A stretch of 64,000 nt of DNA from Minisyncoccota bacterium (GTDB taxonomy: Bacteria > Patescibacteriota > Minisyncoccia > Phycocordibacterales > UBA9973): NCBI GenBank assembly GCA_041650615.1, contig JBAZKU010000001.1:185216-249215 (forward strand). The letters are read 5' to 3'. Numbering within the stretch: position 1 is the stretch's first letter; each line of letters begins with the position of its first letter. This document shows positions 273 through 62,529 of this stretch, one piece after another. A model generated the notes under the pieces. The model saw only the letters and a list, made by a program, of their open reading frames with translations. It made no database searches and was not told where the DNA came from. The translations under genes were made by a program, and so were the position numbers.

Positions 273-1226
273 TTAACTGTTAATAATAACGACCTCATGT
301 CTGCTTTGACTCCCGCCTAGACTTGCATTAGTCGAGGCTGGTGGCGAGGCAGATTTTTTCTTGTGTTCATGCTCATCATGGTCCTCTTCGTGATCAGAAG
401 CTCCAATGGTAAAATAAACCACAAGTAAAATCGAAAAAATAAATGCTTGTATAATTCCAACAAGTATTTCAAGAAAAATAAAAGGAATTGGAATAATATA
501 CCCTACTAATGCCGCTATTGAAGCCAATAAAACTTCTCCGGCAAACACATTACCGAACAGACGAAATGAAAGTGATGCAATTTTCGCAAATTCACCGATA
601 ATTTCAAATAATCCGACAAAGAACGTAACTGGGGCAACAAGGATAATTGTTGGATCTTTCCTTATTTTCCCCCCTATTTGCCCCAATGCTTTCAGATTAA
701 CATATTTATTAAAAGTTTTCCACGCCCCTATTGAAAAAACTCCAAACAAGTTTGCTCCAATAACTGCCATAATAGCAAGTCCTAACGTTGTATTTATATC
801 GGCCGTGCCTCCGCGAAGAAATGGAATAAAAGCAAGTCCATGTTCCCCTTCCTCTAAAAGTCCGAGTCCTCCTAATGGAATTAATCCAAGCCAGTTATTA
901 ATAAGAATAAAAAAGAAAACAGAAATAGCAATTGGGAAAATTTTTATGGAAAGCGCCCTGCTGTTTGTGACTTGATCGCACAAAGAAAGCGCCCCCTCTA
1001 TTATTATTTCAAAAAAATTTTGGATACCTCGAGGAATTTCACGAAGTTTTGAACGAAGAAAAATAGCTATAACAATAATGATTATCACAGCCACCCAGCT
1101 GGTTAAAAGAGCGTTAGTGATTGTAAAATTTTTAAAATGATACACAGGTTCGGCAAAAAGCGTAGTGCTGTGAGATATTTGTTCCGATTGTTCTATTATA
1201 TTTGTCGTATTTTCTTCCAATGTCAT
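273..1226 (-). CDS. atpB: F0F1 ATP synthase subunit a with an unusual His/Asp/Glu-rich C-terminal extension
   Basis: 317-aa polytopic membrane protein with conserved a-subunit helices ([14 protein letters not shown]). The C-terminal ~45 aa ([29 protein letters not shown]) are non-canonical and contain a copy of the cccgcctWgact repeat family. Confidence 0.85.
312..353. repeat. GC-rich repeat, family cccgcctWgact..gcgaggcag, in frame in the atpB C-terminal extension
   Basis: cccgcctagacttgcattagtcgaggctggtggcgaggcag. Encodes [13 protein letters not shown]. Confidence 0.8.
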
Positions 1227-1486
1227 ATATTTTTATTTTCTTTATCTTCTTTCTTTATCCTGACTGCATATTTTTTTACAGCTTTTACGATACCATAAGA
1301 TGAAATTAAAAAAGCTAAAATAACAGAGCCTATAAACATCCATGGTTTTGTGCCGTAATGACTATCAAGAGCTTTGCCTCCTATAACCGCTAATATTATC
1401 GGCACTGCAATCCAAGTGGAAATTTCACTAAAAATTTCAAAAGCCGGCTTCCACCAGATTTTGTTGTTATTTTTATTGTTTTCCAT
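1223..1486 (-). CDS. small two-TM membrane protein, AtpI/AtpZ-like (ATP synthase gene 1 family) by position
   Basis: 87 aa with two hydrophobic helices, immediately upstream of atpB in the same orientation. Its start codon directly abuts the tRNA-Ile 3' end. Confidence 0.4.
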   Translation of the reverse strand: MENNKNNNKIWWKPAFEIFSEISTWIAVPIILAVIGGKALDSHYGTKPWMFIGSVILAFLISSYGIVKAVKKYAVRIKKEDKENKNI

Positions 1487-1487
1487 G

Positions 1488-1560
1488 TGGGCGTGGTAGG
1501 AATCGGACCTACGGCCTCTGTCTTATCAGGACAGCGTTCTACCACTGAACTACACGCCCT
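1488..1560 (-). tRNA. tRNA-Ile (anticodon GAT)
   Basis: Reverse complement GGGCGTGTAGTTCAGTGGTAGAACGCTGTCCTGATAAGACAGAGGCCGTAGGTTCGATTCCTACCACGCCCA. Cloverleaf with anticodon loop CTGATAA. Confidence 0.9.
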
Positions 1561-1567
1561 TATAAAC

Positions 1568-1622
1568 TCGCAGGACAGCATTCGGACTTTATCCGCCTCT
1601 GGCGGAACTGAACTACATGCCC
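1568..1622 (-). pseudogene. truncated 5' copy of tRNA-Ile immediately upstream of the intact gene
   Basis: Minus strand GGGCATGTAGTTCAGT..CTGTCCTG matches the tRNA-Ile acceptor, D-arm and anticodon-stem 5' side. It carries a TCCGCCAGAGGCGGA hairpin insert and has no 3' half. Confidence 0.6.
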
Positions 1623-1696
1623 GAAATCTACACGACCCAATAAAAATATAACAAAAATAGTAATTTTACGCAAATTGCAAAAATTAAAGAACAATA

Positions 1697-1772
1697 TTTT
1701 TGCCGGTACGGATTTTTGAAGCTTAAAAAATCCTGAAATTGGCTCGCCGTCGCTCGCCAAACCCCTTAAAAA
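1697..1772. repeat. ~77-nt intergenic element, copy 1 (hairpin GGATTTTT-N8-AAAAATCC plus direct repeat GGCTCGCC-N3-GCTCGCC)
   Basis: Near-identical to 62539..62615. Both copies lie in the same orientation, upstream on the minus strand of a transcription unit (tRNA-Ile/atp operon here, gap there). Flanks are also similar (about 1684..1790). Confidence 0.8.
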
Positions 1773-60104: not shown

Positions 60105-60126
60105 CCTTTTTTTTCTTTGATTCTTG

Positions 60127-60156
60127 CCCCGTAGGAAGCTTGGCTTTCCTTCGGGG
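60127..60156. repeat. 30-nt imperfect palindrome ccccgtaggaagcttggctttccttcgggg (copy 2), just upstream of the tkt N-subunit start
   Basis: Near-identical to 8734..8762 in obg. Confidence 0.75.
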
Positions 60157-60174
60157 TTAGAATCAGTCAACATA

Positions 60175-60879
60175 TTATAGATTCCTAAATTCTTCTATTG
60201 TTCCAATTATATCATCAGTATTAAAAATCGCTGAACCAATAATGAGTTTTGTCGCACCTGTTTTAATCAAAAGAGGGGCGGTTTCAAAATTTACTCCTCC
60301 GTCAATTGATATTGTAAGGTCTCCAAATTTTTCTTTCAGTGTTTTTACATTTTCCAAAACTTTTTTATCAAATTCTTGCCCTTGAAAGCCAACCTTATCT
60401 ATGCCCATTAATTGCACAAAATCAACATCATTAATCAAGGGGGAAATTTGCTCCAGGGATGTTTTTATATTTAAAGATATGCCTATTTCTATCATCTCTC
60501 TGATATATACATCTATCCCTTCCAAGAAATTTTTGAATTCTTTTAAATCACCCACAGCTTCAATGTGAAAAATAATCTTCTTGGCTCCCAGCTTGGTGTA
60601 AATATCAAAATTTTCTATTGCATCCGCGACCATCAGGTCCAGTTCAAAATCAACATCTTCCCAAAAAGGCATCCCCTCTTCTTCGTTTAAAATCTTTCTA
60701 AAATGTTCTTCCAAAAAAGGTTTACCCTGATTAAAATCAAATGGCCAAGTTTTAGAAGGCACAAAAATCCCGTCGCAAATATCTATCTGCACAATAGGAG
60801 CTATTCCGCGAACAAGCGCGATTTTATTTTTTAAATCCTCGTAGTTTTTCGGCAATATTGCTGGAATTATTTCAGCCAT
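60175..60879 (-). CDS. rpe: ribulose-phosphate 3-epimerase
   Basis: TIM-barrel with IQIDICDG, H-x-H and ISIDGG motifs. Confidence 0.85.
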   Translation of the reverse strand: MAEIIPAILPKNYEDLKNKIALVRGIAPIVQIDICDGIFVPSKTWPFDFNQGKPFLEEHFRKILNEEEGMPFWEDVDFELDLMVADAIENFDIYTKLGAKKIIFHIEAVGDLKEFKNFLEGIDVYIREMIEIGISLNIKTSLEQISPLINDVDFVQLMGIDKVGFQGQEFDKKVLENVKTLKEKFGDLTISIDGGVNFETAPLLIKTGATKLIIGSAIFNTDDIIGTIEEFRNL

Positions 60880-60956
60880 CCCATTAAAAAATTAAACTAA
60901 TAAAAAACTTCTCCAGAATATCTAACCCCGCTGATTTTTTAACGGGACAAGTATTT

Positions 60957-61433
60957 TTAGTCTATTTTGATTGCATCTATTTTCCCTAAACGGCGAATAT
61001 GCCTTTCTGCTCCGCTAAAAAGAGTATTAAGCCAAAGGTTGACGGCTTCCATCATTTTTTCTTCTGTTAAATATCTGGCGCCAAGAGAAAGAATATTTGT
61101 ATTGTTATGTTGCCTTGACCTGACTATAACATCTGCTTCGTCATCTACCACACTTTGTGATTGTCCATAATAAGCAACTGCTCTGACGTGAGGAAATTTA
61201 TTTGCCGCTATTGCTTCTCCTTCCCCTGTCGCCCCTAAAATAATCCCTTTAACATTATTTGGGTCTTTTGAAACTTCACGAGCAACGGGAACAACAAAGT
61301 CCGGATAGTCATCTCCTTCGTCATATTTAAAAGCACCTTTGTCTACGACTTCATATCCTTGAGCTTTTAAAGAAGACACAAGTTTTTCTTTTAATACATA
61401 ACCGGCATGGTCCGTACCAATAAAAATTTTCAT
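60957..61433 (-). CDS. rpiB: ribose-5-phosphate isomerase B
   Basis: MKIFIGTDHAGY.. LacAB/RpiB fold. Confidence 0.85.
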   Translation of the reverse strand: MKIFIGTDHAGYVLKEKLVSSLKAQGYEVVDKGAFKYDEGDDYPDFVVPVAREVSKDPNNVKGIILGATGEGEAIAANKFPHVRAVAYYGQSQSVVDDEADVIVRSRQHNNTNILSLGARYLTEEKMMEAVNLWLNTLFSGAERHIRRLGKIDAIKID

Positions 61434-61437
61434 AATA

Positions 61438-62529
61438 TTAAATAGTTCCTCCTGTTTTTATAACATGCTCGACCAATGTATAGGCATACCCCATTTCATT
61501 ATCATACCAACCCAATACTTTTACCAAATTGCCATCAACTACGCGGGTCATTTCCAAGTCGGCAATGGATGCATGCGATTCCCCTAAAATATCAGAAGAA
61601 ACCAATGGTTCCTTGGTAACAGCAAATACTTTTTCCCAACGCTTGTCTTTTGACGCTTTTTCTAAAATCGCATTAACTTCTTCTTTGGTGGTATTTTTCT
61701 TTGAAATAAAAGTGACATCTACAATTGACCCAGCTACTACCGGCACGCGAACAGAAATACCATCAAATAATCCTTTTAATTCCGGAAAAGCCTCCGTCAC
61801 AGCGATAGCTGCACCGGTTGAACTTGGAACTATGTTTTGCGCAGCCGCGCGTCCCTCGCGCAAATCCTTTTTACTTGGCCCGTCCACAAGCGCTTGAGAA
61901 GCTGTATATCCATGAACTGTATTTAAAATCGCTTTTTCTATCCCCAAAGCTTCATGTAAAATTGCAATTAGAGGGCTTGCGGCATTGGTGGTACAAGATG
62001 CATTAGAAGTAATATCGCAAGTACCGAATTTATTTTCATTAATTCCCAACAATATTGTTTCTCCTTTTACACTTCCCTCATTTCCCCCGCCTAGACTCGC
62101 GCTAGTCGAGGCTGGTTTAGAAGGCGCAGAGATCACAACTTTTTTTGCACCTTGTTCAATATGAAATTTTGCCTTGTCATAAGAAGTAAACAGTCCGGTT
62201 GATTCAACCACCACATCAATATTCAAATCTTTCCAAGGAAGTTTCGTGGTGTCTTTTTCAGAAATGAATTTAATCTTTTTTCCGTCAATTATCAAATCAG
62301 CGCCGGAAACTTCTACGGAATGATTCCAATTTCGGTAAACAGTATCATGACGCAATAAGTAAGCTAAACTTTCTATGGAACCTAAATCATTTACTGCCAC
62401 TATCTCAAGCTCGGGTTTTTCCCAGGCTACTTTTAAAAATGCCCTGCCTATCCTGCCAAAACCATTAATAGATATTTTGATCTTTTTCATAATAATATTA
62501 TAGCACATAATATATGTCCAAAAAGGCAA
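61438..62529 (-). CDS. gap: glyceraldehyde-3-phosphate dehydrogenase with an ~18-aa in-frame insertion
   Basis: NGFGRIGR Rossmann motif and catalytic SNASCTTN. The insertion PASTSASLGGGNEGSVKG before the conserved block is encoded by the repeat at 62086..62130. Confidence 0.9.
   Translation of the reverse strand: MPFWTYIMCYNIIMKKIKISINGFGRIGRAFLKVAWEKPELEIVAVNDLGSIESLAYLLRHDTVYRNWNHSVEVSGADLIIDGKKIKFISEKDTTKLPWKDLNIDVVVESTGLFTSYDKAKFHIEQGAKKVVISAPSKPASTSASLGGGNEGSVKGETILLGINENKFGTCDITSNASCTTNAASPLIAILHEALGIEKAILNTVHGYTASQALVDGPSKKDLREGRAAAQNIVPSSTGAAIAVTEAFPELKGLFDGISVRVPVVAGSIVDVTFISKKNTTKEEVNAILEKASKDKRWEKVFAVTKEPLVSSDILGESHASIADLEMTRVVDGNLVKVLGWYDNEMGYAYTLVEHVIKTGGTI
62086..62130. repeat. 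GC-rich repeat, family cccgcctWgact.., in frame in gap
   Basis: cccgcctagactcgcgctagtcgaggctggt matches 312..342 (in the atpB tail) at 28 of 31 positions. Confidence 0.8.

Follow-up and report, generated by a model that had tools for sequence, protein, structure and literature searches.

Short GC-rich palindromes inserted in frame into atpB, murF and gap of a Candidatus Paceibacterota genome

We analysed a stretch of 64,000 nucleotides (positions 185,216 to 249,215 of contig JBAZKU010000001.1, hereafter the window) from a metagenome-assembled genome of Candidatus Paceibacterota, a member of the Patescibacteria or Candidate Phyla Radiation (CPR), and characterized a family of GC-rich imperfect palindromes of 24–42 nt that it carries. 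The four copies in the window are exact insertions of 24, 30, 30 and 39 nt without target duplication, three of them in frame in the genes for ATP synthase subunit a (called atpB in a preliminary description of this DNA, a name that we keep), MurF and glyceraldehyde-3-phosphate dehydrogenase (GAPDH, gap), and one between genes. Because the same DNA is used in several reading frames and in both orientations, and also occurs between genes, the element acts at the DNA level and not as a peptide motif. We consider it probable that the family is a non-autonomous mobile hairpin resembling REPs (repetitive extragenic palindromes), tolerated in disordered loops and tails of proteins.

The element in the window

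The window has a G+C content of 36% and the majority of its genes lie on the - strand. The 12-mer CCCGCCTWGACT matches it exactly at four positions (312, 2217, 15572 and 62086), all on the + strand, and none of 100 dinucleotide-preserving shuffles of the window contains a match, which confirms the repeat family proposed in the preliminary description. As read directly from the sequence, the atpB and gap copies are identical at 28 of 31 positions (312–342 against 62086–62116), and the coordinates given earlier for the atpB, murF and gap copies are correct. The peptides reported for them are likewise present: an 18-letter stretch in the atpB open reading frame (ORF), SKPASTSASLGGGNEGS in GAPDH and NLPRVDESSRVKAG in MurF. 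The murF copy (15572–15610) does share the ends cccgccttgactc..gcgaggcagg with the intergenic copy; the latter, however, lies at 2217–2240 and not at 2237–2260. It is located 3 nt upstream of the TATAAT box of an RRM-protein gene (1847–2185, - strand). Three of the four sites are in genes, all four copies are co-oriented, also relative to transcription, and the density amounts to 4–5 copies per 64 kb, or about one per 13–16 kb.

Read along the window's + strand, the element consists of CCCGCCT-N-GACTCG, a variable loop, and CGAGGC-N'-GG, where N and N' are complementary. The commonest form has 24 nt (CCCGCCTWGACTCGGCGAGGCW'GG), and in the forms of 30, 32, 33, 36 and 39 nt the loops are largely templated copies of the arms. 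All of the approximately 200 copies collected start with CCCGCC and end with GGCNGG. Copies also stand head to tail without spacer (L063, L039 and L138), and one is nested in another in atpB.

Position 8 and the third base from the end form the pairs A-T (52 copies), T-A (40), C-G (79) and G-C (2), with 2 wobble pairs and 23 non-pairs. Where position 8 is A or T, we counted 52 A-T, 40 T-A, one T.G and neither A-A nor T-T; for C or G at this position the pairing was predicted beforehand and was found on the metagenome contigs as C-G in 79/102 and as G-C in 2/3. To judge from these counts, the covariation points to a folded single strand. It fits a helix in which the first five bases (CCCGC) are unpaired, a register that ViennaRNA finds in the 32- and 39-nt forms with A or T at position 8. 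In the C/G forms the arms also make a perfect palindrome and the minimum-energy fold is the full register with a 5-nt bulge; the unpaired CCCGC tail is one of two possible hairpin registers. The longer forms (32–39 nt) fold at -8 to -14.5 kcal/mol, with z-scores of -2.6 to -4.3.

As a separate observation, some genomes (L099 at 1400–1560 and 5560–5700, L025 and L101) have a longer conserved repeat of about 130 nt around the 24-nt element (...GCCAGCCAGAGG-element-CTGGCTGGTCGCTCTTCGAGCGAGATTCCCG), which has no Rfam match.

Filled and empty sites

Filled and empty orthologous sites were compared at the DNA level for all four copies, and no duplicated bases were found at any of them. Among 120 GAPDH homologues the usual state of the loop is SAPSK-G.(D/E)G.-VKGE. 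Outside the loop, the nearest relatives share about 93% identity with the protein of the window, and they have no insert (SAPSK^G.EG, where ^ marks the insertion point). Their empty DNA sites read TCC AAA^GGA (L122) and TCT AAG^GGA (L123), and the filled site in the window reads AAA^CCAGCCTCGACTAGCGCGAGTCTAGGCGGG^GGA, that is, 30 nt with no duplicated target bases. In the AlphaFold (AF2) model, with a mean predicted local distance difference test (pLDDT) score of 80.9, residues 127–139 are coil with pLDDT below 50, and the insert is thus predicted to be a disordered loop. The insert-bearing GAPDH protein is identical in NCBI, JGI and ENA records, and the DNA with the insert is present in contigs of both ENA and JGI, which come from separate samples; therefore this insert is not an assembly artefact.

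For MurF, the nearest relative (P0123) reads KK^IF at the site; its BLAST identity is 86%, or about 90% when the insert is left out. Its DNA is AAA AAG^ATT TTT, where the window has 39 extra nucleotides. Orthologous copies are present in L126, L127 and L128. When aligned with the MurF of T. maritima (3zl8), the insert region adjoins a 13-residue gap in the solved chain. The intergenic site is empty in L130, which reads GAGTATCTACG^CATTATAAT; the window has exactly 24 nt more, again without target duplication.

The insert in atpB lies in the variable C-terminal tail of the protein. Based on the tails of 120 homologues, the usual ending is ...HKHEEKSEVVIIN, and relatives read ...EEKSEVVIIN; several lineages have PASPSQGG in the tail, and the window has the 18-residue stretch instead. 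This stretch is a composite of two copies, which the preliminary description had overlooked: an outer 24-nt copy, CCTGCCTCGCCA^AGTCAAGGCGGG, is split at its exact centre by the 30-nt copy. The outer copy has decayed in the window (TCT..., AGC AGA), where its halves are TCTGCTTTGACT (300–311) and TGGCGAGGCAGA (342–353). L130 has the outer copy alone (CCTGCCTCGCCA^AGCCAAGGTGGG), and L129 has an intact outer copy with the nested one, in the same arrangement as the window. The earlier claim that the loops are missing from canonical homologs is therefore borne out, since even the closest orthologues of GAPDH, MurF and AtpB are empty, and the alignments of these three genes that had been suggested as a check give exact insert boundaries at the DNA level.

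Other inserts occur at the same places. Five GAPDH homologues (P0017, P0041, P0070, P0099 and P0103) carry DPSTSSGQ(V/A), from a second GC-rich family, at a fixed but different position in the same loop. An insert family of the form 'PAR...AGG' is found in the AtpB tails of P0251, P0265, P0270, P0331 and P0346, and this family is also represented in GAPDH P0019, as PARLEGHSGGG. From these sequences the GAPDH loop and the AtpB tail appear to be general landing sites for inserts.

Reading frames, orientation and spread

Identical DNA encodes PAS...GG in atpB and gap but LPR...KAG in murF, and elsewhere, in the opposite orientation, RLDSAR or PPRLGEAG. Over both orientations at least five reading frames are used (PASPS[QL]GG, LPR..KAG, SLAESRR, RLDSAR.. 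and PPRLGEAG). The preliminary description had named a shared functional peptide as the finding that would speak against an insertion; this is not the case, as the same DNA gives differing peptides and copies also lie between genes.

To characterize the family beyond the window we scanned GTDB with one genome per species, which gave more than 119 loci, and metagenome contigs for the C/G subtype, which gave more than 118. A copy was called genic when it lay inside a stop-free span of at least 450 nt, and the frame test was made on 94 copies from low-GC loci. In this set 49/94 copies are genic, with orientations in the ratio 33:16. The length is a multiple of three in all 49 genic copies, as opposed to 21 of 41 intergenic-like ones (Fisher p = 5e-9), and forms of 28 and 32 nt are intergenic only. 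The independent C/G set of 77 metagenome copies, 38 of them genic (orientation 23:15), presents the same profile: 34/38 genic against 8/22 intergenic copies have lengths divisible by three (p = 3e-5). Thus, the genic half or so of the copies are survivors of a frame filter, and the expectation that copies in genes are in frame holds across other genomes. By ORF continuity, genic copies would be translated, mostly as Pro/Ala/Ser/Gly-rich peptides (PASPSQGG and similar).

The phyla among the GTDB loci are mostly CPR (Saccharibacteria, Moran-, Doudna-, Harrison-, Falkow-, Woese-, Levy-, Nomura- and Giovannonibacteria, and Paceibacterota), with a minority of element-bearing bins that carry non-CPR labels. 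This spread over many related phyla, together with the unusual constancy of the sequence, indicates that the element is more than an oddity of one genome.

Discussion

The explanation that we favour is a REP-like mobile hairpin. The element is a miniature GC-rich imperfect palindrome family of AT-rich CPR genomes whose new copies are seen as exact insertions, singly, head to tail, or nested at the centre of an older copy. As the element has no coding capacity, copying would occur in trans, possibly through recognition of the folded strand by an enzyme. The HUH/Y1 transposases, either IS200-like or REP-associated tyrosine transposases (RAYTs), would be the first class to consider; copying by hairpin-driven template switching may be an alternative to a transposase. 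Resident copies may serve as preferred targets, and might stay intact through the same recognition or through conversion or recombination between lineages. The earlier phrase 'selfish insertion that is tolerated as surface loops' is supported as far as insertion and tolerance go, by the clean insertions and by the low-confidence coil of the GAPDH loop; the word 'selfish' is an interpretation, and the arms are too conserved for junk.

A gene of the Y1 class lies close to the window. It is found in L001 and has hairpins, GTAGCCCCATAGG-TCTTG-CCTATGGGGTA, on both sides, a RAYT-like arrangement. The gene is missing from the syntenic region of the relatives L122 and L123. Homologues in L124 and L109 have their own, different hairpins, and one of the L124 hairpins is inside the transposase gene. 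Y1 genes with flanking hairpins in the host and in related genomes indicate that hairpin-mobilising machinery is present in the lineage. A phmmer search with two Y1 proteins gave one homologue, in L109, which does not adjoin the element, and the window contains no copy of the hairpin found beside the nearby transposase. Rfam, at the gathering threshold and for the window and three loci, reported tRNAs only. In the literature that we searched, there was no description of the element's sequence, nor of REP sequences, RAYTs or MITEs (transposable elements that are miniature and have inverted repeats) in connection with Patescibacteria.

Several observations weigh against a mobile hairpin, and some of them concern the machinery. 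The Y1 genes of L001, L124 and L109 are all flanked by GTAG-type hairpins and none by the studied element. No gene recurs beside the element in an all-against-all clustering of ORFs from the 119 loci listed, and a scan of viral contigs for the element gave no match. Flank logos show no conserved target motif, only a preference for G or A at -1 (80%) and for a pyrimidine at +1 (88%). The strand on which the pattern reads is the C-rich strand at 52 of 85 loci with strong GC skew (52:33), a weak bias (p = 0.05). Furthermore, the hairpin formed by 24-nt copies is weak (-3.5 kcal/mol, z about -0.4).

The remaining points on this side concern the sites and the sequence of the copies. The same nucleotide positions are filled in scattered lineages. 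In gap, three variants (A/T type of 30 nt, T/A type of 24 nt and T/A type of 30 nt; window, L124 and L125) stand at exactly AAR^GGN in the same orientation, and the nearest relatives of each carrier, 87–95% identical outside the loop, have an empty site. Filled sites are likewise scattered among lineages for MurF, and for the atpB tail by inspection of tails and BLAST identities. Such scattered occupancy needs targeting, frequent precise excision or lateral transfer of alleles. In the four murF lineages, gene-wide nucleotide identity is 71–76% and third-codon-position identity about 52%, and synonymous sites are saturated; the 28 nt of the arms are nevertheless identical in three of these lineages. 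In the fourth (L128), the sole difference in the arms is a set of three concerted substitutions (T>C, T>C, A>G) by which complementarity is preserved. The loop and the synonymous base just outside the element vary freely. The nested atpB copy is identical at 30/30 positions between the window and L129, whose proteins are 74% identical. By these comparisons, orthologous copies are conserved far beyond neutral expectation, which a purely junk element should not show. Decay is also seen, in the outer atpB copy and in a 21-nt remnant at the murF site of P0122.

Recurrence and conservation could stem from the use of resident copies as targets, for which the nested and tandem copies argue, or from excision and re-insertion, conversion or lateral recombination. 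A bolder proposal, to which we give a low probability, is an ultra-small 'homing' hairpin common to the CPR, whose arms would be kept intact by a single-strand-specific enzyme or by an uptake or recombination drive, and the same process would bring the element back to identical positions in essential genes across lineages. If true, a whole bacterial radiation would share a genomic replicator that persists, or a DNA signal with a function.

Ranked second after the mobile hairpin, and rather improbable in our judgement, is a host-level DNA motif: an uptake or recombination signal spread by molecular drive, or a binding site of a CPR protein, with rare insertion alleles that spread by recombination. 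Gene exchange among groundwater Patescibacteria, as reported in PMC12455944, is in line with it as far as that account goes. So are the conservation of arms at synonymous sites, the identical nested copy in divergent atpB genes, the patchy and phylogenetically scattered occupancy of the same sites, the same sequence over many CPR phyla, the absence of a linked gene (among the loci listed) and of viral-contig matches, and the weak strand bias. On the other hand, the same 24–39 nt are inserted cleanly in unrelated sequences, which a drive based on point mutation and recombination does not create, and the nested and tandem copies resemble insertion events. The density is low; known DNA uptake sequences occur roughly once per kb. 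Watson-Crick covariation suggests a folded single strand, not a duplex binding site, and the flanks of orthologous murF copies are no more similar to one another (71–88% identical) than the remainder of the gene is (71–76%). We find it unlikely that the copies are excision footprints, the joined ends of a larger transposon, homing element or intron-like insert. In its favour, the arms are inverted with respect to each other as terminal repeats are, certain sites have been hit more than once, and the window also contains a 105-nt MITE-like element with 16-nt terminal repeats; but no larger element bounded by the arms was seen in about 240 loci, the loop variants are templated arm copies and not random filler, target duplications are lacking, and head-to-tail arrays and centre-nested copies are hard to derive from footprints.

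The compensatory change and nucleotide-level conservation of the murF copies would also fit an RNA-level signal in mRNA (for stability, processing or translation speed) kept intact by selection, as would the common orientation of all four window copies relative to transcription and the 33:16 ratio elsewhere. This reading is very unlikely, since both orientations occur in genes (33:16 and 23:15), the host genes are unrelated, with positions that range from promoters to C-terminal tails, and Rfam families do not match; moreover, as read from the sequence, the commoner orientation places C.A and C.U mispairs, not the G.U strand, in the mRNA. We give hardly any credence to a functional peptide motif common to the proteins, to chance, or to an artefact of assembly. 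Linkers rich in Pro/Ala/Ser/Gly are frequent in proteins and the commonest reading, PASPSQGG, recurs, but unrelated peptides result when the same DNA is read in its different frames and orientations, which already refutes this explanation. Also against it are the intergenic copies, the closest orthologues without loops, the 0/100 shuffle matches, the same insert-bearing GAPDH in ENA, JGI and NCBI sources, and the insert DNA in ENA and JGI contigs of separate samples.

A repeat inside essential genes of the tiny, gene-dense CPR genomes bears on the annotation and alignment of their proteins. The family would account for some of the lineage-specific loops in CPR proteins, and it offers a natural experiment on insertion-tolerant protein positions in a group that makes up a large share of bacterial diversity. 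It also raises the mechanistic question of what copies a 24-nt hairpin exactly, without target duplication, and holds its sequence constant from phylum to phylum. Should a host function or a drive lie behind the conservation, the element would be a genome-wide signal of a new kind in CPR.

Comparison with known elements

The preliminary description had drawn an analogy to Rickettsia palindromic elements (RPEs). In the account of Ogata et al. 2000, as cited in PMC10969869, these have about 100–150 bp and a conserved family-specific peptide, and are confined to Rickettsia. As far as that account goes, the likeness extends to palindromic, translated and tolerated inserts in frame in unrelated housekeeping genes, to several families per genome, and to the small AT-rich genome of a host-dependent bacterium. 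The analogy holds for in-frame insertion into unrelated protein-coding genes and not for size: the studied element, in a Paceibacterota host, is far smaller (24–42 nt), GC-rich, read in several frames and found in many CPR phyla. The statement that such insertions are little described outside Rickettsiales was too strong, as intragenic REPs and MITEs are known in several other bacteria (PMC3733652, PMC10969869). The effect of the element resembles that of RPEs, and its architecture is closest to REPs.

REPs are GC-rich stem-loops of 20–40 nt that carry an unpaired tag and G.T pairs and in some cases lie within genes; for their CGTC class, too, no transposase is known (PMC3733652). The studied element resembles them as a GC-rich imperfect palindrome with copy lengths of 24–41 nt and able to form a stem-loop. 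However, REPs have a conserved GTAG or CGTC tag (PMC3733652), and here the tag is CCCGC and neither end is GTAG or CGTC; REPs are also mostly extragenic and downstream of genes, as opposed to 49/94 and 38/77 genic copies in our two sets. With the REP/REPIN-RAYT system (PMC3116915, PMC3479197) the element shares the GC-rich stem-loop, a short conserved unpaired tail, G.T pairs within the stem, lack of target duplication, clusters or tandems and some genic copies. The copies are mostly single, in contrast to the inverted dimers of REPINs, and where a RAYT gene of that system is flanked by the same repeats, the three Y1_Tnp genes seen here, in loci and not in whole genomes, carry other hairpins. 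REPINs persist and are vertically inherited over long times, according to what bioRxiv 10.1101/2021.07.10.451892 sets out, and within that account their persistence recalls the conservation of our orthologous copies.

MITEs (Coxiella QMITE, ERIC and Correia; PMC10969869) are similar in their inverted-repeat ends, in being non-autonomous and mobilised in trans, and in occasional in-frame fusions. They differ in that they typically have 50–500 bp, are AT-rich, make target duplications and can be traced to insertion sequences (PMC10969869), none of which holds for the studied element; four filled/empty comparisons gave no target-site duplication. IS200/IS605 elements insert 3' of a fixed tetra- or pentanucleotide, as opposed to the weak preference at -1 and +1 seen here, and with regard to their orientation by replication strand, the element has the bias described above and 4/4 co-oriented copies in the window. 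DNA uptake signals arise by substitution, at about one per kb, and the studied copies, 4–5 per 64 kb, are all insertions. The G+C-rich clusters of yeast mitochondria also resemble the element: they are short GC-rich hairpins in a very AT-rich genome, occur singly or in tandem and in some cases lie within a coding sequence (var1), to which they add residues, and the mechanism that mobilises them is not known. They differ in being mitochondrial, in belonging to another sequence family and in having a preferred target with short duplications.

Other repeats in and near the window

The features of the window and the nearby transposase gene are collected in Table 1. At least three more families of in-frame palindromic inserts, overlooked in the preliminary description, are present in the window.

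Table 1 Copies of the element, their host genes and other repeats (window coordinates unless a locus is named).
Feature	Position	Strand	Remarks
F-type ATP synthase subunit a (atpB)	273..1226	-	PF00119; host gene
Composite atpB element	300..353	+	decayed 24-nt T/A-type copy split 12 + 12 by the nested copy at 312-341
30-nt copy, A/T type, CCCGCCTAGACTTGCATTAGTCGAGGCTGG	312..341	+	read on the - strand as 10 residues, C-terminal tail of ATP synthase a subunit
24-nt copy, T/A type, CCCGCCTTGACTCAGCGAGGCAGG	2217..2240	+	intergenic
murF, UDP-MurNAc-tripeptide--D-Ala-D-Ala ligase	15379..16713	-	host gene
39-nt copy, T/A type, CCCGCCTTGACTCGCGAAGACTCATCAACGCGAGGCAGG	15572..15610	+	read on the - strand as (N)LPRVDESSRVKAG, MurF C-terminal domain
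Type I glyceraldehyde-3-phosphate dehydrogenase (gap)	61438..62490	-	true start is the ATG at 62490; host gene
30-nt copy, A/T type, CCCGCCTAGACTCGCGCTAGTCGAGGCTGG	62086..62115	+	read on the - strand as PASTSASLGG, GAPDH loop after SAPSK
105-nt MITE-like element, 16-nt terminal inverted repeats AAAGATTGCGAAGCAG...CTGCTTCGCAATCTTT	50478-50582, 51780-51884		in LeuRS ORF 50031-52634 (-)
Second GC-rich hairpin family, CCCCGTAGGAAGCTTG(G)CTTTCCTTCGGGG	8734-8762, 60127-60156, 52509-52538		8734-8762 in Obg ORF 8435-9487 (-); 52509-52538 at LeuRS N-terminus
Y1_Tnp gene (IS200-like, PF01797)	L001 5331-6070		upstream of dnaE, about 4 kb past the end of the window

The MITE-like element of 105 nt, which is the closest structural analogue of an RPE in the window, also occurs between genes at 22679–22792. 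In LeuRS it is inserted in frame twice, with about 35 residues each (AKQ.LFHGSHSNLN.V.EPNIAYAEKS.ASQS), and the LeuRS of a relative is 70 residues shorter.

The second hairpin family folds at -8 to -9 kcal/mol (z about -3), and its ends resemble the hairpin that flanks the Y1 gene outside the window. In Obg it is read as PEGKQASYGA, where E. coli ObgE is about 9 residues shorter. The copy at 60127–60156 was considered as genic and rejected, as the alignment places it upstream of the real transketolase (tkt) start. The C-terminal region of Obg also contains an 18-nt perfect palindrome (8528–8545, CCTGCCTGCGCAGGCAGG), in frame as PACAGR, whose arm is similar to that of the studied family.

A repeat of about 110 nt is present at 1679–1790, between the RRM-protein gene and tRNA-Ile, and at 62521–62633, directly upstream of gap. 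The two copies are 90% identical over 78 nt and may stem from duplication of a promoter region or represent a further small mobile element. Adjoining tRNA-Ile, a tRNA-like 5' fragment (GGGCATGTAGTTCAGT..., 1561–1625, - strand) has a GC hairpin, TCCGCCAGAGGCGGA, at the place of the D-loop; this fragment is called by neither ARAGORN nor Rfam. A 96-nt palindrome at 54200–54295, with 30-nt arms that are 93% complementary, lies in a methyltransferase-like ORF (53686–54651, - strand), within a linker that differs from the L123 orthologue; the comparison did not establish it as an insertion. Finally, a tandem coding repeat of 24 nt (ACCAACTCCAGAAACCCCTACCCA, about 4 units) at 29593–29712 gives a Pro/Thr/Glu-rich repeat.

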